Part shown: piece after piece, positions 20,875-58,959 of the stretch
How positions within the stretch are numbered: position 1 is the first letter of the stretch
Layout: every line of letters starts with the position of its first letter
From: Octopus vulgaris
Lineage: Eukaryota
Assembly: GCA_951406725.2 (NCBI GenBank)
Contig: OX597843.1
Coordinates: 7,626,001-7,690,000, forward strand
Reading direction: 5' to 3'
DNA length: 64,000 nt
Translations under genes and position numbers: made by a program
The notes under the pieces: generated by a model
What the model was told of the DNA's origin: nothing
The model's database searches: none
Seen by the model: only the letters and a program-made list of their open reading frames with translations

Positions 20875-20925
20875 CCCCTAACCCTAACCCTAACCCTAAC
20901 CCTAACCATAACTAACCCTAACCCT
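20875..20925 (-). repeat. Interstitial (TTAGGG)n telomere-like repeat inside a MITE
   Basis: Run of CCCTAA units on the + strand. Confidence 0.8.
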
Positions 20926-21189
20926 AAAACAGATTGAAATGCAATAGATCGATTCTAGGGTCATAATTATGAGTGACAATTTCATATGACCCCACTAGAA
21001 ATAAATGAGGCATTCTAGATTACTTCGAACATAGAAGTGTCACATAATCCTTTCTAATGAAGGCACACGGCCTTGAAATTTTGCGGGAGGGGACTAGTCA
21101 ATCCATTGATTCCAGTGTTTCACTGGTACTTAATTTATCGTTCCCGAAAAGATGAAGGCAAAATCGACCACGGCAGAATTTGAACTCGG

Positions 21190-26701: not shown

Positions 26702-26792
26702 CAATACCAAATTGCAACCGCCATTACCGTGATTAGGACCATCAACAGAACCAATGGAACTATCACAAAAACCAGGTTATTCTCTGTTTTTT
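26702..26792 (-). CDS. RPTP exon: transmembrane helix ([30 protein letters not shown])
   Basis: Acceptor tttccag, donor GTATGT, 91 bp, phase 1-2. About 23 hydrophobic residues, followed by basic KKR in the next exon. Confidence 0.9.
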
Positions 26793-33649: not shown

Positions 33650-33790
33650 CTTCGCATTTCCTGAAAAACTTGTCCCAGTAATATCCTTTAACGCAACCTT
33701 GCTTACAACCCATGACTTGATCACATTTAGAACCTTCACAAAATTTGCAGCGTTCCATACACATATCTCCATAGAATCCAGCAACACATT
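33650..33790 (-). CDS. RPTP exon: EGF-like repeat (CVAGFYGDMCMERCKFCEGSKCDQVMGCKQGCVKGYYWDKFFRKCE)
   Basis: Acceptor atttcag, donor GTTAG, 141 bp, phase 1-1. Confidence 0.88.
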
Positions 33791-33831
33791 CTGAAATAAC
33801 AAAAATGATTAAAAAAATATCGTGGTAACTC

Positions 33832-34297
33832 TATGTAAAACTAAGATAAAACTTAGATATGTTTCGACCACAGATTGGTCCAGGCCATGTCTAACTTAAT
33901 AGCACCACCTGATAGGATTATCTAAATCCTGTTTATGTAAAACTAAGATAAAACTTAGATATGTTTCGACCACAGATTGGTCCAGGCCATGTCTAACTTA
34001 ATAGCACCACCTGATAGGATTATCTAAATCCTTGTTTATGAAAAACTAAGATAAAACTTAGATATGTTTCGACCACAGATTGGTCACATTTAGAACCTTC
34101 ACAAAATTTGCAACGTTCCATACACATATCTCCATAGAATCCATCAACACATTCTGAAATAACAAAAATGATTAAAAAAATATCGTGGTAACTCTATGTA
34201 AAACTTAGATAAAACTTAGATATGTTTCGACCACAGATTGGTCCAGGCCATGTCTAACTTAATAGCACCACCTGATAGGATTATCTAAATCCTGTTT
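33832..34297. repeat. ~100-bp local tandem repeats containing a partial duplicate of the adjacent EGF exon
   Basis: Repeated TAAGATAAAACTTAGATATGTTTCGACCACAGATTGGTC; exon copy at 34084-34153. Confidence 0.8.
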
Positions 34298-34704
34298 AAG
34301 TCAAGTTTTTTTTGGGGGGTGGGGGAGCACTCCGTCGGTTACAACGATGAGGGTTCCGGTTGATCCGACCAACGGAACAGCCTGCTCGTGAAATTAACGT
34401 GTAAGTGGCTGAGCACTCCACAGACACGTGTACCCTTAACGTAGTTCTCGGGGATATTCAGCGTGACACAGAGAGTGACAAGGCCGGCCCTTTGAAATAC
34501 AGGTACAACAGAAACAGGAAGTAAGAGTGGGAGAAAGAGTGGTGAAAGAGTGCAGCAGGGTGCGACACCACCCCCTGCCGGAGCCTCGTGGAGTTTTAGG
34601 TGTTTTCGCTCAATAAACATTCACAATGCCCGGTCTGGGAATCGAAACCGCGATCCTATGACCGCGAGTCCGCTGCCCTAACCACTGGGCCATTGCGCCT
34701 CCAC

Positions 34705-37322: not shown

Positions 37323-39300
37323 TAGTTATATTTCGGAATGGTCATATTGCCAGTTTAGCCAATAAAAACACACGCACTATATATTTGGTGTTATTTTGCT
37401 TCAGTGATATTTATTTTTTACATTAATCTTAATCTTATTTCGGCCAAAGTTCTTTCGTCACACTCCTGTGACCGCATCAGTGGTCCTTTGTTTTCTTCTC
37501 ACTTACTTGTGTCTCTCCTTACTAACCGTCAGCCATTTTGTATTTCTATTGTATGTCTTCATTTGCGCATGCTTATATCTCTATGTGCGTCTATGTTTAT
37601 TTAGTGTGTGTGCGGGGGGGGTGGTGCCTGTAATATTTGTATCTTCTGGTTATATACATTCTTGTAATTTGTATTTTGTTTTTGTTGTTGTTGCTTTTGT
37701 TCTAATTTTGTTCATGTGTTTACATCCACCCATTATTATCATTACATATGCTTGTATGTATGTATAACAACAAAATTAGTAATAAAAATAATAAATCTAA
37801 TCGAAAAAAAAAAAAAGAATATACATATACATATATATACATACACATACATATATACACACATATATACACATATACATATACATATATATACACATGC
37901 ACATATATATAGATATTCATTTCTATTTCTTTAATTACCTGTGTATTTATTATGTTTGCAGGATCCACTATTGTCATATGTTGTGGTGTGCGCTATTGCT
38001 CCATTCTAGTTTTCTATTCAGGCTAGGTTTATTTTCTATTATATGTGTAGCTTCTGTAATTTGTCTAATTGTTGCATCTGTTCTATGTGTGGACAATATC
38101 TTAATCTCTATGTTATTGATTGATCCCCCGTGTTCTTGTTCGGCGTGTTGGTACAGAATCGATGAGCTTTTACCTTCCTTGAGTTGTCTCCAATGTTCAT
38201 TCACCCGCTCACCAATGCTTCTTGCAGTTTCCCCTACATATGTTACTGTCTTGTTACTGCATCGTCCCTCTATGCATCTTATACTATAGACCACATTTCT
38301 GGCTTTACAGTTCGTTTGTGGGCTAAATCTACATACAGTGCAATAGTTATCCGTACAGAGAGTTCTACTAAAAGGATAGCTTCTACCAATTATAGATCTG
38401 ATAGGGTTGCCTGGCTTTTCAACAACCTTAATTCTTAGTTTAAGTTTATCTAGGGTCCTTCTAAAGCGGTACGCTAGTTCACCTCCAGGGGTGGTGTCAA
38501 CGAACATGACACTCTGGTATTTATGGCTATCATACCAAGAGTTGGCCTTCCCTATTTTCTTTTTTGTCCTTTCTATAGTGTTCCATGACTTGTTCCTATA
38601 GAGTGGGCAAATCCCATTCCTATCATTACATAATATATTATCAAATTTCTTCATGGCTCCTTTGTATACTCTGATCCTTTCTTTATGGCTGTAACCTGAG
38701 AACTGCATGCGGTGAATGAAATACTGTATGTGTCTCTTTAATTCTGTAGGCTCGCACATGCGTGACACATTTCTCATTATTCTGATGAGGTCTGCCATCA
38801 AAATATTGAATTTGGCATTGCCCGCAATGGCTGAGTTCCGGTGGATCAGGTATTTTGAGGCCATAGGTTTTGCATAGTATGAATGAAGGATTTGGGTTTA
38901 TTTTTCACAATTTCTAGCCAGAGTTCAGTGTCTAGTACTGGTAGTCTATGGTTGGGGTGTTTAGTGGGGTAGTCTATTGTGACCTTAATACTCTGGTGGA
39001 TGGAGTTAGCTATTTGCTGGATGCTCTCCATAGTATTAGTTTCTATTACTATATCAACAGTACTCTCTTGTGGGGGTGCCTTTACTACTATATTGATATC
39101 ATCAACATAGCGAGAGTACATGTTTACGAGTATGGATTTCTGCAGTAGGCATTCTTTAAGCCTTCTGTCCCACCATACCATGAAGAGGTTGGCCACATCA
39201 CCAGTGATACTAATACCGATGGCTGCCCCCTCGTCCTGGGCATATATTTTATTATTAAATTTAAATGTGTGGCCTTTTAGGGTAACTCTTATACTAGCTC
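37320..39300 (-). mobile_element. 5'-truncated Penelope-like element (RT C-terminus + GIY-YIG endonuclease, frameshift near 38860, 3' pseudo-LTR)
   Basis: GIxITG...YSRYVDD...LPVLD RT motifs; VVYSIRC...YVGETARSIGERVNEH GIY-YIG motif; ORF ends at 37974. Confidence 0.92.
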
Positions 39301-39483
39301 TAATTGATCGATACTATTCTTATAAATCAATATTTTAAAAATTAATAGTTATCGCTATACTAATATGACATTCTTTAAATATAAGAACAAAGCTGTCGCT
39401 GATTAGCTCCAAGAGGCCACCACCTCAAGCTAGCTACTTGGACACACAAATTGCGTCCGTTATTAAACCTTCGAACAGGGGAG

Positions 39484-39544
39484 GTCTGACTACGCTGCAT
39501 TGAGAAGGGGCAACAACCCTGAAACCTGTCTGTAGCTGTCGGAC
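39484..39544 (+). ncRNA. Type I hammerhead ribozyme fold, U3-A8 core variant; second intact copy at 41254-41314
   Basis: GTCTGAC-tac-GCTGCA TTGAGAA GGGG-CAACAA-CCCT GAAAC-CT-GTC TGTAGC-t-GTCGGAC. Stems I and II pair by eye; GUC triplet present. Confidence 0.65.
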
Positions 39545-39801
39545 TAGCTGGTTGAAGCGGCTGACCTACCCTGTTCGAAGGTTTGATAACGGACGCAGTT
39601 TGTGTGTCAAGTAGCTAGCTTGAGGCGATGGCCTCTTGGAGCTAATCAGTGACAGCTTTGTTCTTATATTTAAGAATGTCATATTAGTATGGCGATAACT
39701 ATTAATTTCCAGTAACGCTGCCATAATCTCTTTTAAAGAGACTTAGTAATTTTTATATTTCTAATATTTTTAAAGTGAAATAACAAATATACATAACTTA
39801 C

Positions 39802-39985
39802 GTAATACTTCCACTTCACATAGAGTAAGCTGTTTCTCCTTTCCTTCTAACGATATTCTGACAATACTTGTATTTACTGGTTTTTCACATTTAATATGAA
39901 TTACTTGTTCCGTGTGTTCATGATACCTACTTTCAAAACAAAGTTTTTGGTCCAAGAAAAACTTTAAAATTTTTCAACCTGTAAC
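39802..39985 (-). pseudogene. Duplicated lectin C-terminal exon, copy A; one extra base in a homopolymer (real frameshift or consensus error)
   Basis: Same splice sites as copy B but 184 bp. Removing one T from the run at 39944-39948 restores VFLGPKLCFESRY...NTSIVRISLEGKEKQLTLCEVEVL. Confidence 0.75.
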
Positions 39986-40278
39986 CTAGAATCGAAATAT
40001 AAGAGTAAAACTGAAATCAATGTATCGGTATACTTATTTTTTAATTTTTGTATATGTTTATTATTATTTTTTTGAAAAAAAAAAAAACATTGTAAATTCC
40101 TTTTTTCCCCTTCCTCAATTTAAAAAAAAATTCTTTTCATCTTTCAATTCTTTAAAATTTGCTTTGCGATGAAAACCGGTTAGAGTTAATATTTTTAAAA
40201 TTAATTTTTAAAAATTTTCCATACACCCATTTTTATTAAAATTTACCTTCAATTCTGCATTTTTATAATTTTTTTCGC

Positions 40279-40372
<94 letters not shown>

Positions 40373-40470
40373 AAACTGAAACACTAAAGATGAAAGATAC
40401 GAGCATTTTCAGTAATCACTACAATTACTTCGACACATCTAGCACCAACGTTGTGTTCTTTTATGAAAAA

Positions 40471-41253
40471 GTCTGACTACGCTGCATTGAGAAGGGGCAA
40501 CAACCCTGAAACCTGATATTCTCTTCTCCACACTCAATAGCGTCAACAACTTATTGATCGATACTATTCTTAGAAATCAATATTTTTAAAATTAATAGTT
40601 ATCGCCATACTAATATGACATTCTTAAATATAAGAACAAAGCTGTCGCTGATTAGTTCCATGAAGCCATCGCCTCAAGCTAGCTACTTGACACACAAACT
40701 GCGTCCGTTATTAAACCTTCGAACAGGGGAGGTCTGACTACGCTGCATTGAGAAGGGGCAACAACCCTGAAACCTGATATTCTCTTCTCCACACTCAATA
40801 GCGTCAACAACTTATTGATCGATACTATTCTTAGAAATCAATATTTTTAAAATTAATAGTTATCGCCATACTAATATGACATTCTTAAATATAAGAACAA
40901 AGCTGTCGCTGATTAGTTCCATGAAGCCATCGCCTCAAGCTAGCTACTTGACACACAAACTGCGTCCGTTATTAAACCTTCGAACAGGGGAGGTCTGACT
41001 ACGCTGCATTGAGAAGGGGCAACAACCCTGAAACCTGATATTCTCTTCTCCACACTCAATAGCGTCAACAACTTATTGATCGATACTATTCTTAGAAATC
41101 AATATTTTTAAAATTAATAGTTATCGCCATACTAATATGACATTCTTAAATATAAGAACAAAGCTGTCGCTGATTAGTTCCATGAAGCCATCGCCTCAAG
41201 CTAGCTACTTGACACACAAACTGCGTCCGTTATTAAACCTTCGAACAGGGGAG
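40471..41253. repeat. 261-bp tandem repeat x3 (fold-back left arm + truncated hammerhead)
   Basis: GTCTGACTACG recurs at 40471, 40732, 40993 and 41254. Confidence 0.9.
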
Positions 41254-41571
41254 GTCTGACTACGCTGCATTGAGAAGGGGCAACAACCCTGAAACCTGTC
41301 TGTAGCTGTCGGACTAGCTGGTTGAAGCAGCTGACCTACCCTGTTCGAAGGTTTGATAACGGACGCAGTTTGTGTGTCAAGTAGCTAGCTTGAGGCGATG
41401 GCTTCATGGAGCTAATCAGCAACAGCTTTATTCTTATTTTTAAGAATGCCATATTAGTATGGCGATAACTATTAATTTCCAGTAACGCTGCCGTAATCTC
41501 TTTTAAAGAGACTTAGTAATTTTTATATTTCTAATATTTTTAAAGTGAAATAACAAATATACATAACTTAC

Positions 41572-41754
41572 GTAATACTTCCACTTCACATAGAGTAAGC
41601 TGTTTCTTCTCTCCTTCTAACAATATTTTGACAGTTTTTGTATTTACTGGTTTTTCACATTTAATATGAATTACTTGTTCCGTGTGTTCATGATACCTAC
41701 TTTCAAAACAAAGTGTTGTTCCAAGTAAAACTTTAAAATTTTTCAACCTGTAAC
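41572..41754 (-). CDS. RPTP exon: F-type lectin domain, C-terminal half, copy B (YRLKNFKVLLGTTLCFESRYHEHTEQVIHIKCEKPVNTKTVKILLEGEKKQLTLCEVEVL)
   Basis: Acceptor ttctag, donor GTAAGT, 183 bp in frame, terminal LTLCEVEV motif. Confidence 0.9.
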
Positions 41755-42044
41755 CTAGAATCGAAATATAAGAGTAAAACTGAAATCAATGTATCGGTAT
41801 ACTTATTTTTTAATTTTTGTATATGTTTATTATTATTTTTTTGAAAAAAAAAAAAACATTGTAAATTCCTTTTTTCCCCTTCCTCAATTTAAAAAAAAAT
41901 TCTTTTCCCCTTTCAATTCTTTAAAATTTGCTTTGCGATGAAAACCGGTTAGAGTTAATATTTTTAAAATTAATTTTTAAAAATTTTCCATACACCCATT
42001 TTTATTAAAATTTACCTTCAATTCTGCATTTTTATAATTTTTTT

Positions 42045-42147
<103 letters not shown>

Positions 42148-43486
42148 AAACTGAAACACTAAAGATGAAAGATACGAGCATTTTCAGTAATCACTACAAT
42201 TACTTCGACACATCTAGCACCAACGTTGTGTTCTTTTATGAAAAAGTGTATATCTTTGTATATCAATACATTAAAGTCAACTGTCTCTACTGTAACTTGT
42301 CTCAAAAACAATGTAATCTTAATAAACAGATTAAAATCTCCTCATTTGATAATGATTCAGTCATAAAAATCGACGCAACATTCAGCAAAATCCATACAAT
42401 CTAGTAATGCACGAGACATTAGGGATATTACAGATATCAAAGAATGCTTGTTAGATGGACCTGATCTCCTTAGTTCATAGCCACAATATTATCAAAGCAA
42501 TACGAGTTTCTACCATTCTGAAGTTAACATAGAGAGCAAACTAAAATTATTTCCATTGTCATCGAATCAGTGGTGGATAGAAAACTGTTCGAATTCCACC
42601 AACAATTGCAGTGTTCTTTTAATTCTCTGTATATCCATTTATATACATTATTTCAACACAAATGAACATATGTAATACGAATGTGGAGGCACATGGCCTA
42701 GTGGTTAGAGCAGCGGACTTGCAGTTGAGGGATCGCCGGTTCGAATCTCAGACCGGGTGATGTGTGTATTTATGAGCGAAAACACCTAAGCTCCACGCGG
42801 CTCCGGCAGAAGGTAATGGCGAAACTTCTGCTGACTCTTTCGCCACAACTTTCTCTCACTTTTTCCTCCTGCATCTTGCAGCTCACCTACGACAGACCGG
42901 CGTCTCGTCCAGGTGGGGAACATATACGCCAAGAAACCAGGAAACCAGCCTTTATGAACCTGGCATGGCTCAAGAAGGAACATTGTGGAGGCACATGGCC
43001 TAGTGGTTAGAGCAGCGGACTTGCGGTAGAGAGATCGTGGGTTCGAATCTCAGACCGGGCGATGTGTGTATTTATGAACGAAACACCTAAGCTCCACGCG
43101 GCTCCGGCAGAAGGTAATGGTGAACTTCTGATGACTCTTTCGCCACAACTTTCCCTCACTCTTTCCTCCTGCATTTTGCAGCTCACCTGTGACGGACCGG
43201 CGTCTCGTCCAGGTGGGGAACCTATACGCCAATGAAACCGGGAAACCGGCCCTTATGAGCCAGGCATGGCTTGAGAAGGAACAAACAACAAAAAACAATG
43301 TAATACGAATCGACTGACCCTCTAACTGACCACTGGAAATTTTAAAAACAGCAGCGTCAACATCACAGTCTTAAAATTGATTGGATGGTCACGGCTGAAA
43401 ATCCTTTGATCAGAGGTCTAGTTAACCAAGACTTATTCAAACTGGGTAACAGCAATACGAAAGTAGTATTTTTTAGCAATACTTAC

Positions 43487-46348: not shown

Positions 46349-48581
46349 ACATGCGCAGTTAGTCGGTTGCTTCTTGTTGAGCTAGAGTGGACGTGAGTAA
46401 CAAGCTCTGTCCAACTAAAGAAAAAGACCAAAAACGGAAAGTTATCGAGGTATGTGATTTTGTTTATTGTGAGTTGGGCATAATTTATTGCGTGCCAATT
46501 ATTATTTCAGTAGGTTGTGTCCAACTCTGAGACAATTTCGCCTGCGCTAGGCGGCTGCCGTTTTTGTGTTCATTGAAAAAAAAAGAAAAAACAGTGGAGG
46601 GGCGTATACTCAGAATTCAATACAGTTACTGTTAAAATTACCATTGACGGTAGCCAGTGCTGCGTTTGAGTTTGCTGAATTTATTCCCTTGTCAGAGTAC
46701 TTCGCAAGAAAAGTATAAAAATAAGCCACTATTGGATTACCTTTCGGACCCATTTTTGTGGAGGTTGTGTTGCAGTTGCGGCGTTCCAGGTTCAACCCAG
46801 GCCGGGAGTACCGCAAGGCCAGAATATTTTTTCTGTGTTTTTTCTGTTTATTAACTTTCTTTTGAACTTCATTTACATCCCCCCCCCTTTTGTTTTTTCT
46901 TTATTGCGACTTACCGTTAATTTCTTCCCTTCTGTTGTGCTTTCTCCTTTTTGTTTTTTCAAAAATCTATCAAATTTATTTAGACTTTTGAACTTTTTTC
47001 TTCCTGCTATTGAGTTTAATTTGAATATATTTTTAAAAAACATGGCAATGAAAAATAACAAAATTTTGGAGTGGGAAATCATACTACCCAAAAAGTGGTT
47101 AAAAGACCGTGAAGATAGGACGGTGGTGTTGAGAACCTACTCCAAGGCACTTGACACCATCGCCCTATTCGAAAAGACGGCAATTGAGGAGGAGTTGGAG
47201 GAGTATTTGCCAACAATTAAATTCATTTCAGGGGTGTCAAATATGCAACGGTGTGGTTGCTATTTGACACCCCTGAAGAGGCTTGCAAATTTGCTAGCGA
47301 ACCCTTGGAGGGCAAGGAAATCTTATTCCTGTCCACGTACAAAAAAAAGAAATTGATGAAAGCTTGGATCTGCGAACTGCCACCCGACATAGAACCTGAG
47401 TGGATAGAGGAGACTATCCGCCGGGGTCTGGGTGACAGCGAAACTAAGCTCCTCAATGTAAAGTTCTTCCTGCGGCTGCTTGGGTTGGCTCGAAAGCAAT
47501 TTTGACCTTGTGGACCCAATCAGCCAATCTGGTTTTTCCAGATTTTTTGAAAATGGCCGGGTGCAGGTACCCGGTGATGCTTGAGGGTCGCGCCCCTAAG
47601 TGTCATCGGTGCTTGGAGTCCGGCCACATAAAGAAGAACTGTCCTCGGGAACAAAATAGGATCCCGGAACAGTTAAGTAAAACCCCTCTAGAAGAGGGAA
47701 CGATAACGGCCGAGAAAGCAGAGGATTCCTCAAACAGAGGCCGAAAGAGGAAGGTGAGCAACAATGGGTGCTCACCAAAGGATAATAGGGATGAGGAGAG
47801 GAAGGCGAATCTTCCAGCCACAGAGGAGACGCACCCTCCCTCAGTTGAAAAGGGAAAAAAAAAAAGAAAAAGAGGAAGAAAACGGGACATTACCGGCTGT
47901 CAGTGTAGCACCGGAATGTCGCGGAACTACGTCGGTTGGGGTTGTGCCACCGACAAGAGAAGGAATACCGTTGGCGGAAACTGTGCCGCCAACAAAAGAA
48001 CTGAATGTATTGGTCCTCTTCTATAGAGGAGGAGAAATTGAAAAAGTGATGGAAGAGCACTACAAGGGAGCACCTTTAGCCTTCACACAGGACCCCGAAT
48101 GGCCTCCGCAGGTAGCTGTGGAGGCCGTGGCGTTCGACGTGACGCTAGGGCTAAAGGAGCTCAATGAAGATTATAACTTGGTCCCGGGCAACGCGAACTC
48201 GGAACTTGACTACGTTCTGAGGGAGGCGTGGTTGATGGTGGAGGGCGCGGGCACAAGCTATTTCGAGGACGATATGTATTATTAGTAATGGACTTAAGTC
48301 CAAAAATTGGAAAATTGTAAGAGGATTAATACCTCGTTTTGTATTAATAATGGACTGCTAAGCCCAAAATTGGAAAAATTGTAAGAGGTTAAATACCTCG
48401 TTTTGTGTTTATCTTTTTAAAAAGAACAATGTTTTAGAGAAGCAAAAGTCGGCGGGCGCTTTCTGCCTTCTCCCATCCTTATCATCTTTCTTTCATTATC
48501 ATTCACCTCATTAATGTCCTCGTCCAGCCCGCAAAGCTAACTTGATCTGTGTACTGCCTTTATGGCAAATGTTTTGAAATA
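46349..48581 (+). mobile_element. Tx1/L1-like element carrying only a frameshifted ORF1 (~47042-48285; CCHC knuckle CHRCLESGHIKKNC), with an 18-bp TSD
   Basis: AAGTAGCTTGCTAACCAG at 46331-46348 and 48582-48599. Gag-like ORF1 pieces in several frames; no endonuclease or RT motifs seen. Confidence 0.8.
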
Positions 48582-50811: not shown

Positions 50812-53800
50812 GTCACCGTGACCTCGGGTCATCACCATGAATTGACCAATCAGAAGCAGCGCTGTCACCGTGACCTCGGGTCATAGCCGTGGATTGACCA
50901 ATCAGAAGCAGCGCTGTCACCGTGACCTCGGGTCATCACCATGGATTGACCAATCAGAAGCAGCGCTGTCACCGTGACCTCGGGTCATCACCATGGATTG
51001 ACCAATCAGAAGCAGCGCTGTCACCGTGACCTCTGGTCATCACCATAGATTGACCAATCAGAAGCAGCGCTGTCACCGTGACCCGGGTCATCACCATGAA
51101 TTGACCAATCAGAAGCAGCGCTGTCACCGTGACCTCGGGTCATCACCATGGATTGACCAATCAGAAGCAGCGCTGTCACCGTTACCTCGGTCATCACCAT
51201 GGATTGACCAATCAGAAGCAGCGCTGTAACGCAATCGTGACCTCGGTCATCACCATGGATTGACCAATCAGAAGCAGCGCTCGTAACCGTGACCTCGGGT
51301 CATCACCATGGATTGACCAATCAGAAGCAGCGCTGTCACCGTGACCTCGGGTCATCACCATGGATTGACCAATCAGAAGCAGCGCTGTCACCGTGACCTC
51401 GGGTCATCACCATGAATTGACCAATCAGAAGCAGCGCTGTCACTGTGACCCTCGAGTCATCACCATGGATTGACCAATCAGAAGCAGCGCTGTCACCGTG
51501 ACCTCGGGTCATCACCATGAATTGACCAATCAGAAGCAGCGCTGTCACCGTGACCTCGGGTCATCACCATGAATTGACCAATCAGAAGCAGCGCTGTCAC
51601 CGTGACCTCGGGTCATCACCGTGGATTGACCAATCAGAAGCAGCGCTGTAACCGTGACCTTTGGTCATCACCATGGATTGACCAATCAGAAGCAGCGCTG
51701 TCACCGTGAGCTCGGGTCATCACCATCAATTGACCAATCAGAAGCAGCGCTGTCACCAGACCTTGGGTCATCACCATGAATTGACCAATCAGAAGCAGCG
51801 CTGTCACCGTGACCTCGGGTCATCACCATGGATTGACCAATCAGAAGCAGCGCTGTCACCGTGACCTCGGGTCATCACCATGGATTGACCAATCAGAAGC
51901 AGCGCTGTCACCGTGACCTCGGGTCATCACCATGAATTGACCAATCAGAAGCAGCGCTGTCACCGTGTCCTCGGGTCATCACCATGGATTGACCAATCAG
52001 AAGCAGCGTTGTCACCGTTACCTCTGGGTCATCACCATGGATTGACCAATCAGAAGCAGCGCTGTAACCGTGACCTCGGGTCATCACCATGGATTGACCA
52101 ATCAGAAGCAGCGCTGTAACTGTGACCTCGGGTCATCACCATGGATTGACCAATCAGAAGCAGCAGTTGTCACCGTGACCTCCGGTCATCACCATGGATT
52201 GACCAATCAGAAGCAGCGCTGTCACCGTGACCTCGGGTCATCACCATGGATTGACCAATCAGAAGCAGCGCTGTCACCGTGACCTCGGGTCATCACCATG
52301 GATTGACCAATCAGAAGCAGCGCGTCACCGTGATCTCGGGTCATCACCATGGATTGACCAATCAGAAGCAGCGCTGTTACCGTGACCTCGGGTCATCACC
52401 ATGAATTGACCAATCAGAAGCAGCGCTGTCACTGTGACCTCGAGTCATCACCATGGATTGACCAATCAGAAGCAGCGCTGTCACCGTGACCTCGGGTCAT
52501 CACCATGAATTGACCAATCAGAAGCAGCGCTGTCACCGTGACCTCGGGTCATCACCATGAATTGACCAATCAGAAGCAGCGCTGTCACCGTGACCCGGGT
52601 CATCACCATGGATTGACCAATCAGAAGCAGCGCTGTAACCGTGACCTCGGGTCATCACCATGGATTGACCAATCAGAAGCAGCGCTGTCACCGTGAGCTC
52701 GGTCATCACCATCAATTGACCAATCAGAAGCAGCGCTGTCACCGTGACCTTGGGTCATCACCATGAATTGACCAATCAGAAGCAGCGCTGTCACCGTGAC
52801 CTCGGGTCATCACCATGAATTGACCAATCAGAAGCAGCGCTGTCACCGTGACCTCGGGTCATCACCATGAATTGACCAATCAGAAGCAGCGCTGTCACCG
52901 TGACCTCGGTCATCACCATGGATTGACCAATCAGAAGCAGCGCTGTAACCGTGACCTCGGGTCATCACCATGGATTGACCAATCAGAAGCAGCGCTGTCA
53001 CCGTGACCTGGGTCATCACCATGAATTGACCAATCAGAAGCAGCGCTGTCAACGTAACCTCGGGTCATCACCATGGATTGACAAATCAGAAGCAGCGCTG
53101 TCACCGTGACCTCGGGTCATCACCGTGGATTGACCAATCAGAAGCAGCGCTGTAACCGTGACCTCGGGTCATCACCATGGATTGACCAATCAGAAGCAGC
53201 GCTGTCACCGTGACCTCGGGTCATCACCATGGATTGACCAATGAGAAGCAGCGCTGTCACCGTGACCTCGGGTCATCACCATGAATTGACCAATCAGAAG
53301 CAGCGCTGTCACCGTGACCTCGGGTCATCACTATAAATACATACAGAAGCAGCGCTGTCACCGTGACCTCGGGTCATCACCATGGATTGACCAATCAGAA
53401 GCAGCGCTGTCACCGTGACCTCCGGTCATCACCATGGATTGACCAATCAGAAGCAGCGCTGTCACCGTGACCTCGGGTCATCACCATGGATTGACCAATC
53501 AGAAGCAGCGCTGTCACCGTGACCTCTGGTCATCACCATGGATTGACCAATCAGAAGCAGCGCTGTCATCAGACCTCCGGTCATCACCATGGATTGACCA
53601 ATGAGAAGCAGCGCTGTCACCGTGACCTCGGGTCATCACCATGGATTGACCAATCAGAAGCAGCGCTGTCACCGTGACCTCGGGTCATCACCATGGATTG
53701 ACCAATCAGAAGCAGCGCTTTCACCGTGACCTCGGGTCATCACTATAAATTGACCAATCAGAAGCAGCGCTGTCACCGTGACCTCGGGTCATCACCATGG

Positions 53801-54340
53801 ATTGACCAATCAGAAGCAGCGCTGTCACCGGACCTCGGGTCATCACCATGGATTGACCAATCAGAAGCAGCGCTGTCACCGTGACCTCCGGTCATCACCA
53901 TGGATTGACCAATCAGAAGCAGCGCCGTCACCGTGACCTCGGGTCATCACCATGGATTGACCAATCAGAAGCAGCGCTGTCACCGTGACCTTCGGGTCAT
54001 CACCATGGATTGACCAATGAGAAGCAGCACTGTAACCGTGACCTCGGGTCATCACCATGAATTGACCAATCAGAAGCAGCGCTTTCACTGTGACCTCGGG
54101 TCATCACTATAAATTGACCAATCAGAAGCAGCGCTGTCACCGTGACCTCGGGTCATCACCATGGATTGACCAATCAGAAGCAGCGCTGTCACCGTGACCT
54201 GGTCATCACCATGGATTGACCAATCAGAAGCAGCGCTGTCACCGTGACCTCGGGTCATCACCATGAATTGACCAATCAGAAGCAGCGCTGTCACCGTGAC
54301 CTCGGGTCATCACCATGGATTGACCAATCAGAAGCAGCGC
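50812..54340. repeat. 52-bp minisatellite, ~68 copies
   Basis: Unit CTGTCACCGTGACCTCGGGTCATCACCATGGATTGACCAATCAGAAGCAGCG. Confidence 0.97.
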
Positions 54341-54399
54341 TCGCAGTCTCTGACATATGTTAGGTAGCAAAAATATCTCAAAGTGTTCTCACTCACATG

Positions 54400-56670: not shown

Positions 56671-56969
56671 AAAATGTTTTGGTATCACTTACTACATATG
56701 AAATAAAATAACAGAAATAAATTAGAAGAAACAATTGAAAATCGCTATTAATACGAGATGTAAATTACCATAGAAAATACGATAAAGGGTTGCCTTGTCT
56801 ATACATCTCTAGCCAATCATGCAAATTGTCTTTTCCATTTGAGTTGTTTGCAGTCCATTCCGATCGGATACGTAACCTTCATTGTTGCATCTGCAGGGAA
56901 GAGTATATACACAAAAATAGATTTATGCCTGTAAATGTGTGTACACACACACACACACACAGACACACA

Positions 56970-57537: not shown

Positions 57538-58959
57538 CAGGTGGAGTTGGACAAATAATGGAAACACCTAGCATCATAGCATCATAATTTTGAAATATCT
57601 ATAAAACATAGCATGTCAAAAGCTTGTTTATTTTTATGTTTTTTTATTTATTATTAGTGTTGCTTAATATGTTTTGCTAAAATTGCTGTTTCTTTTCAGA
57701 TATCATCAGAAAAAGGTAATTAAAATTCATTAAAATGACAGATCTATCGACTTTCAAAGAGGTCAAATTGTTGGTGCTCGTATGGCAGGCGCTAGCGTAA
57801 CGAAAACAGCCGAAATGTTTGGTGTATCAAGAAGTACTGTCTCGAAAGTAATGACAGCCTTTGAGAAAGAGGGAAAAACCTCCTCGTCGAAACAAAACTC
57901 CGGAAGAAAACCAAAACTTTCAGATAGGGACCGTCGGACTCTTACGCGAATTGTTAGAAAGGATCACAAAAGTACAGCTCCCAAAATTACTACAGAGCTT
58001 AATGACCACCTCGAGAACCCAGTTTCCACAAAAACTGTTCGCCGGGAGCTGCACAAACCGGGATTTCACGGGAGGGCTGCAATCAGAAAACCACTACTTT
58101 CAAAAACAAACTTTGCAAAGCATTTAGAGTGAAGTAAAAACCTAACATGCAGTGGAAGAATATTATTTTCTCAGACGAGTCATCCTTTACCTTATTTCGA
58201 CCACTGGGCAAGTATACGCGCGGAGAGAGCCAAAAGAAGCATTTGACCCAGACTGCATTCTTCTAACTGTTAAACATGGAGGAGGATCTGTGATGATCTG
58301 GGGGTTATATTTTGGAAATCCGCCAGCCCAATGGTTTCGTTTCATGGCAGGATTAATAATCAAGACTCTTTTAACATTTTATCTGATCAAATTTATCCTA
58401 TGGTTGTGGAACTGTTTCCGGCGGGAAATAATTTTCAGAATGATCCAATGCACCAATTCACACAGCTAAAGTTGTTACTGAATGGCACGAAGAACATTCT
58501 AGTGAAGTCGAACATCTTATCTTCTGGCCACCACAGTCCCCAGATCCCAATATTATTGAACTTTTATGGTGCATTTTAGGAGTGGCTGTGTGGTAAGTAG
58601 CTTGCTAACCAACCACATGTTTCCGGGTTCAGTCCCACTGCATGGCACCTTGGGCAAGTGTCTTCTGCTATGGTCCCGGGCCGACCAATGCCTTGTGAGT
58701 GGATTTTGTTGATTTTTTTGAAACTGAAAGAAGCCTGTCGTATATATATATATATATATATATTTATTATATAGAAGGAGCTTTTACAGGACTAGTACTG
58801 TTTCATTCAAGAGAAATCTTCAGGAAGCTTCCTGAAGATTTCTCTTGAATGAAACAGTACTAGTCCTGTAGAAGCTCCTTCTATATAATAAATTAATTTT
58901 ACTCTGCTATGTATTGAGTACCTTACTTACTGTGGTTAACCCCGAATCAACCCGGGACC

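Follow-up and report, generated by a model that had tools for sequence, protein, structure and literature searches.

Two versions of a lectin-fold exon in a fast-evolving octopus receptor tyrosine phosphatase gene

The stretch of Octopus vulgaris DNA analysed here (the window, 64,000 nt of G000:C30) carries on its reverse strand, between 2481 and 63002, part of a gene that, read from its sequence, is an octopus receptor tyrosine phosphatase (PTP) with EGF modules and an F-type-lectin-fold domain. Its closest named proteins are P0001 from O. sinensis (1124 aa) and P0002 from O. bimaculoides, and its parts follow in the order EGF, lectin-fold domain, two EGF exons, transmembrane segment (TM, 26704-26790), PTP D1 and PTP D2; the window does not reach the N-terminal exon or PTP D2, which are in neighbouring stretches. 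PTP D1 contains the catalytic motifs WPD and HCSAGVGRTG (positions 754 and 786 of P0001, both motifs being identical in the window exons), and the phosphatase domain, conserved in these features, is probably active. Two exons make up the lectin-fold domain, a single-copy upstream exon (43738-43487, reverse strand) for its N-terminal half, which differs from O. sinensis at 9 of 83 residues, and an exon for its C-terminal half that the assembly presents twice. The assembly is poor within this gene: an ectodomain exon at 56769-56890 (reverse strand) is riddled with scattered deletions, about 22 of 146 bases being missing relative to P0001, the downstream EGF exon (33650-33790, reverse strand) is partly repeated at 34080-34153, next to a 102-bp array, and two 100-N gaps lie 9.5 and 12.3 kb past the window end. 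The damaged exon at 56.8 kb, for which a DNA search returned no paralogue, resembles an unpolished long read inside an otherwise conserved gene. The EGF duplication pairs 33717-33941 with 34080-34304, and its partial copy encodes Asp, as do sequencing run X5 and O. sinensis, while the full copy encodes Ala.

Comparison of the assembly with itself places the duplicated lectin exon in two blocks, A (39300-40472) and B (41072-42247), that are 96% identical, block B running uninterrupted into unique upstream intron. This agrees with an earlier note, made from the letters alone, that had described a duplicated block of about 1.17 kb with both splice sites. Exon copy A (39985-39802, reverse strand, 184 nt) and exon copy B (41754-41572, reverse strand, 183 nt) are 1586 nt apart, have identical splice sites and are both phase 1-1. 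They differ by one extra T in A and at 9 codons, with 10 nonsynonymous substitutions and no synonymous one, as the note had seen. Seven of these substitutions fall within 30 nt (patch 1, at 41608-41637 in B and of ancestral type in A) and change 6 residues, and the other three, near a T-run, change 3 residues (patch 2). Such clustering of 7 of 10 substitutions is improbable by chance (P = 0.004). The 10:0 ratio has a chance probability of 0.04-0.09, depending on kappa, with 73-79% of sites nonsynonymous, and taken alone it is weak evidence of selection; adding two further changes found in run X2 gives 12:0 (P = 0.02-0.06). The A-type exon is 1 nt from X5, 3 nt from X2 and 10 nt from B, and relative to the X5-type sequence exon B has 9 nucleotide states of its own, affecting 8 residues.

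The adjoining intron, which had been called near-identical, is so upstream of the exon, where the near-exon intron has 2 substitutions in 462 nt, but not downstream, where 18 substitutions and 2 indels separate the two copies of a foldback element over 421 nt. Divergence in the exon exceeds that in the near intron (10/183 versus 2/462, P = 1e-4), and the excess is less clear against all flanks (10/183 versus 20/883, P = 0.025) because of the 18 substitutions in the foldback. When nonsynonymous sites are set against the non-coding flank downstream, P is 0.10. Over the roughly 655 nt downstream of the exon the copies differ by 28 substitutions, and their left flanks also differ.

Much of this flanking sequence is repetitive. 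The left flank of copy A is a truncated Penelope-like retroelement that abuts it (37977-39313, reverse strand), consisting of a reverse transcriptase fragment (38849-39313; RVT_1, E = 0.004) and a GIY-YIG part (37977-38897; E = 0.00075), both profile matches being below the Pfam cut-off; the combination of these two domains we take to be a Penelope-type layout. A MITE-like foldback, very high-copy in the genome, occupies 39339-39708 in copy A and 41111-41478 in copy B, and some differences between its two copies are matched on both arms, which suggests arm-to-arm conversion. Between the exon copies sits a 261-bp tandem array (40471-41298) of 3.2 units, each composed of the foldback left arm and a 37-nt spacer, with the units 100% letter-identical. 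The earlier note had mentioned neither this array nor the retroelement. The spacer occurs nowhere else in G000, and the 37-nt flank aligned to 8 paralogue introns no better than did shuffled sequences. Block A passes into the array at 40471-40473 with 2 nt of microhomology, and tandem arrays are common locally within the window.

To compare the two exon forms with independent sequence, we used contigs from 6 of the 14 runs listed: X1 and X2 (DNA), X5 and X6 (RNA by guess) and X11 and X12; X5-X10 are RNA by guess, none of the matching runs listed being on record as RNA. The T-run at 39944-39948 (forward strand) is one base too long in the assembly, as the base is missing from all four runs compared on copy A (X1, X2, X5 and X6), with the shorter form at a depth of 42 of 42 in X1. 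The frameshift in copy A is therefore a consensus error, as the earlier note had supposed when it took both copies to be phase 1-1. A single 218-nt contig of X1 carries all 7 B states of patch 1 together with A's patch 2, of which A's private Lys codon is part. The A-type patch 1 is found in X2, X5, X6 and P0001, and in these three runs patch 2 has the form found in P0001; the exon form in X2 encodes the O. sinensis sequence. Since B states occur in X1 and A states in X2, X5 and X6, both forms of patch 1 are real, and the earlier proposal of divergent, allele-like copies is supported. No contig of X1, X2, X5 or X6 shows patch 2 in its B form.

Contigs of both RNA-guess runs compared, X5 and X6, join the upstream lectin exon to one 183-nt A-type exon and this in turn to an EGF exon. 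Across the six RNA-guess runs, 0.20-0.30 of copy B's words are present (presence data only), against an expected share of 0.27 for a non-B transcript and about 0.73 for a B-type transcript. Because contigs drop rare variants, these data show that the non-B type is used and not that B is absent. A whole-domain protein search (18 matches) gave no further product of the host gene, and a search for short proteins containing exon B gave no candidate.

The join between block A and the array (40472/40473) is bridged by no listed contig in the four runs searched over 40372-40731 (X1, X2, X11 and X12), of which X11 and X12 are uninformative there because their contigs reach neither the left side of the junction nor the 37-nt spacer. 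The X1 and X2 contigs that cover 40372-40472 are unbroken at the junction and continue for 280 and 461 letters, respectively, in sequence unlike the window. These contigs derive from a simplified graph (10.1101/2024.07.30.605881), and the simplification could have deleted a short link leading into a very high-copy repeat; short links beside the foldback repeat did survive, at depths of 3.6-5.3 in X2 and 69.8 in X1. The comparison covered about 80% of X1 and 76% of X2. In the X1 contig that includes the 37-nt spacer, 226 letters of other sequence stand to the left of the spacer, and on the right 111 nt are skipped relative to the window, which is why X1 may come from an animal other than the one assembled.

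Depth was read as copy number under four models, a use against which the tool itself warns since contig depth does not equal copy number, and two X1 calibrations disagree. In X2 the depths of exon and flank are equal (30.7 and 30.8), from which the exon is single copy. In X1 the exon contig has 0.75 of the depth of a paralogue on C3, where two alleles predict 0.73 and a duplication carried by both homologues 1.46. Three local depths in X1, observed at 42/37.8/16.5, are fitted by a three-copy model (41.6/38.1/16.9), comprising a real tandem on one homologue and a mosaic allele on the other, better than by a two-allele model (31.4/43/21.5).

The duplicated exon has 10 paralogue matches, one on C3 and nine on C14, which lie at least 110 kb apart; none of the 10 is doubled, and the exon is likewise single copy in the gene models of O. 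sinensis and O. bimaculoides. On C14, each lectin exon has nine matches and each PTP exon seven, and an O. vulgaris protein agrees at 100% with two exons there. The C14 paralogues, about nine in number, are clustered on both strands at G000:C14:73.28-74.73 Mb (L004-L010, L016-L024, L028-L042); in four of them the first lectin exon contains a common in-frame stop, and two have in common a copy of part of that exon, which lies 2.4 kb off (L025, L026). The C3 paralogue (L003, L015; G000:C3:20.86 Mb) has an O. sinensis counterpart, P0156 (470 aa), that stops after the TM, and its lectin domain differs little between the two species. As the two PTP exons used in the search gave no match on C3, this paralogue may be a receptor lacking a phosphatase.

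The lectin domain differs from that of O. sinensis at 12 (copy A) or 19 (copy B) of its 143 residues. The remaining ectodomain exons in the comparison differ at 9 of 238 residues and the intracellular part at 0 of 353, a count that omits one short cytoplasmic exon (2 residues differ) and the damaged ectodomain exon. The lectin domain is thereby set apart from the cytoplasmic part (P = 2e-7 for A, 2e-11 for B) and, with B, from the other ectodomain exons (P = 0.07 for A, 0.0009 for B); evolution is fast in the ectodomain but not in the cytoplasmic part. Pairwise dN/dS between B and the paralogues is 1.0-1.65 in the duplicated exon (8 pairs), 0.44-0.81 in the upstream lectin exon (10 pairs) and 0.19-0.34 in two PTP exons (14 pairs). 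In our own codon models, run with identical rows dropped and the tree shape fixed, M2a is favoured over M1a, with some 10% of sites in a class whose omega is near 7 (P = 2e-11), a signal that gene conversion among paralogues may inflate. It persists when the window copies (P = 2e-8) or the four stop-carrying paralogues (P = 5e-8) are dropped, and the PTP control gave no positive-selection signal under these models. The diversifying selection suggested earlier is thus borne out for the domain at the level of the family. The patch that separates A from B is not the family's main hot spot, as only one of the nine A/B codons (codon 49) has a posterior above 0.5.

Which surfaces these changes may affect can be judged from the structural model of the O. 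sinensis domain, which predicts an F-type jelly-roll fold (pLDDT 85) and whose top 11 Foldseek matches, including 1K12 and 3CQO, are all F-type lectin structures (TMq 0.68-0.74). Aligned to eel agglutinin, with residue numbering from PMC5712786, the octopus domain keeps the calcium site (eel residues D38, N40, S49, C146 and E147) and the main disulfide, Cys50-Cys146. The fucose motif HX24RXDX4[RK] (His52, Arg79, Arg86) is lost, with Gln, Gln and Arg at the triad positions and no Asp81, whereas several C14 paralogues retain the triad His and Arg; the Asp64-Arg131 salt bridge is also absent, the aligned positions being Thr and either Ser (A) or Lys (B). The earlier identification of a lectin exon accordingly stands for the fold, as modelled, and not for fucose binding, and because the triad is lost we use "lectin" to name a fold and not a ligand. 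Of the changed positions, 40, 42 and 44 are interleaved in a single strand of the model with the invariant Val41, Ile43 and Leu45; a second strand contains position 9, and the loop preceding the last strand contains 48-49. We infer that the two strands are neighbours whose changed positions face outward on a five-stranded sheet, and that the 48-49 loop belongs to the set surrounding the pocket. Outward-facing changes together with a pocket loop would suggest a non-fucose ligand, and on this modelling the domain probably binds something other than fucose, possibly a protein.

Our preferred account of the exon pair, to which we assign a probability of roughly 0.55, is that A and B are two old alleles of one exon that were joined in tandem by assembly error. 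The two chromosomes would differ in the flanks of the exon, with the Penelope-like insertion on one haplotype and the array together with the 37-nt flank on the other, and the assembler would have kept both and set the alleles one after the other. The missing bridge and the X1 and X2 contigs that run on unbroken past the junction argue for such a join, as do the single copy in X2, the X1 depth ratio close to that of two alleles, the letter-identical array units, the poor local assembly, the distance of the A-type exon from the X2 form (3 nt, against 10 nt from B) and the one A-type exon spliced in X5 and X6. It is opposed by the continuity of the sequence between the exon copies, which contains no N gap, by the better fit of the three-copy model, by the absence of B's patch 2 from every run, by the frequency of real local duplication here, by the chance that X1 is a different animal, and by the fact that cleaning of the contig graph could hide a true junction. 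Heterotype false duplication, described in PMC8081667 as a common assembly error that mimics exon duplication, is similar in that two diverged haplotypes enter one primary sequence, and dissimilar in that no gap separates the copies here. Because depth does not decide, we also entertain, more tentatively and as the less probable course, that the tandem is real and limited to one haplotype, two old alleles having been captured on one chromosome. A possible route would be a replication stall at the foldback, a template switch between homologues at the 2-nt microhomology, and subsequent array expansion. The three-copy model fits X1 well under this account and explains the mosaic contig with B's patch 1 and A's patch 2; the ungapped sequence and the microhomology are also in its favour, as is the apparent frequency of real local duplication, given that arrays are common here and that two C14 paralogues share the copied first-exon fragment. 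However, neither the junction nor the junctions between array units occur in X1 contigs, even though short repeat-side links survived, the C3 paralogue would need to be present at 3.3n in X1, and X2 has a single copy. A captured tandem may be neutral, harmful (with both exons in frame, one and a half domains would be made) or usable as a splice choice. Joining of two alleles on one chromosome is known from the heterogeneous duplication of mosquito ace-1 (PMC6121789), which, unlike the putative octopus case of a half-domain exon in need of splicing, joins whole genes.

That such a capture, of two positively selected alleles, took place at exon scale and that either exon is spliced, so that an exon pair was born from a balanced polymorphism, we regard as unlikely; were it so, one haplotype would make two receptor surfaces, and a balanced polymorphism would be seen becoming a splice choice. 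Less credible still is the first suggestion of the earlier note, that these are established mutually exclusive exons that swap the ligand surface of the receptor. The shared phase, the equal length once the extra T is discounted and the identical, intact splice sites (in the assembly only) would suit exons of this kind, and the differences avoid the invariant core, with 1 of 9 on the 25 invariant sites of 60 (P = 0.045). Against the suggestion, however, stand the single copy in X2 and in the two gene models, the widely spaced and undoubled paralogue matches, and the RNA-guess runs, where no B-type transcript was seen, either as word share (at most 0.30 against about 0.73, six runs) or in the contigs of X5 and X6, which splice one A-type exon. 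We also found no exclusion mechanism among steric, frame, splice-site-type and symmetric-docking arrangements: the copies are 1586 nt apart with identical splice sites, their joint inclusion would be in frame, and, with all foldback arms downstream of B in the transcript, pairing of the arms would be able to loop out A but not B. Most probably the exon pair does not serve as a splice device. We give equally little credence to a single locus with a single sequence, in which the differences arose as noise from consensus building or polishing, or by conversion from a paralogue. The erroneous T, the noisy exon nearby and the absence of B's patch 2 from all runs are what noise would leave, but B's patch 1 occurs in full in an independent X1 contig, with the A states in other runs and in P0001, and we rejected noise as the source of the patch-1 differences. 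Conversion was rejected in turn as the source of B's patch, which matches none of the 8 paralogue exons compared out of 10.

If the preferred account of two alleles joined by the assembler holds, the exon pair is an artefact that brings to light two old alleles of an octopus receptor that evolves fast, and the assembly is unreliable where such receptor genes vary most. By architecture the gene belongs, on sequence comparison, with the MEGF/GBD receptor-like tyrosine phosphatases of the SudRes1 region of the snail Biomphalaria sudanica, identified in a GWAS of schistosome resistance (PMC12297450). Both have EGF modules, a galactose-binding-like domain, one TM and tandem PTP domains, and SudRes1 also resembles the octopus family in its clustered paralogues, its extracellular nonsynonymous diversity, its structural differences between haplotypes and a region that is hard to assemble. 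The octopus gene differs in having no link to a pathogen or phenotype, and its variation has been placed on the lectin-fold domain and assessed with codon models. Since the snail GWAS ties the family to schistosome resistance, the octopus receptor is a candidate for cephalopod immune or self/non-self recognition. It would be a cell-surface recognition receptor whose lectin-fold domain has been diversified by selection at its top loops and outer beta-sheet face, and it probably signals through its conserved phosphatase domain, as has been proposed for the Biomphalaria receptors. A limited search of titles and abstract openings found no paper on this receptor family in octopus.

A second parallel is offered by Pacific oyster bindin, a sperm protein with whole-domain repeats, documented alternative splicing and selected sites clustered on the pocket (PMC5712786). 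Its F-type domain is likewise split by a central intron and under positive selection, some bindin forms have also lost the His-Arg-Arg triad, and a microsatellite and a retroelement lie beside the exon. Unlike bindin, the octopus sequence has a half-domain doubled in a membrane phosphatase, and most of its A/B changes lie on beta-strand.

Other features of the window include a 52-bp satellite of 68 copies in an intron of the receptor gene (50812-54341) and a short interstitial (CCCTAA)n array of 9 copies (20876-20927). By eye, frameshifted ORFs at 57734-58576 (forward strand) resemble a Tc1/mariner transposase, and ORF fragments with a CCHC zinc knuckle at 46679-48282 (forward strand) are probably a retroelement ORF1.
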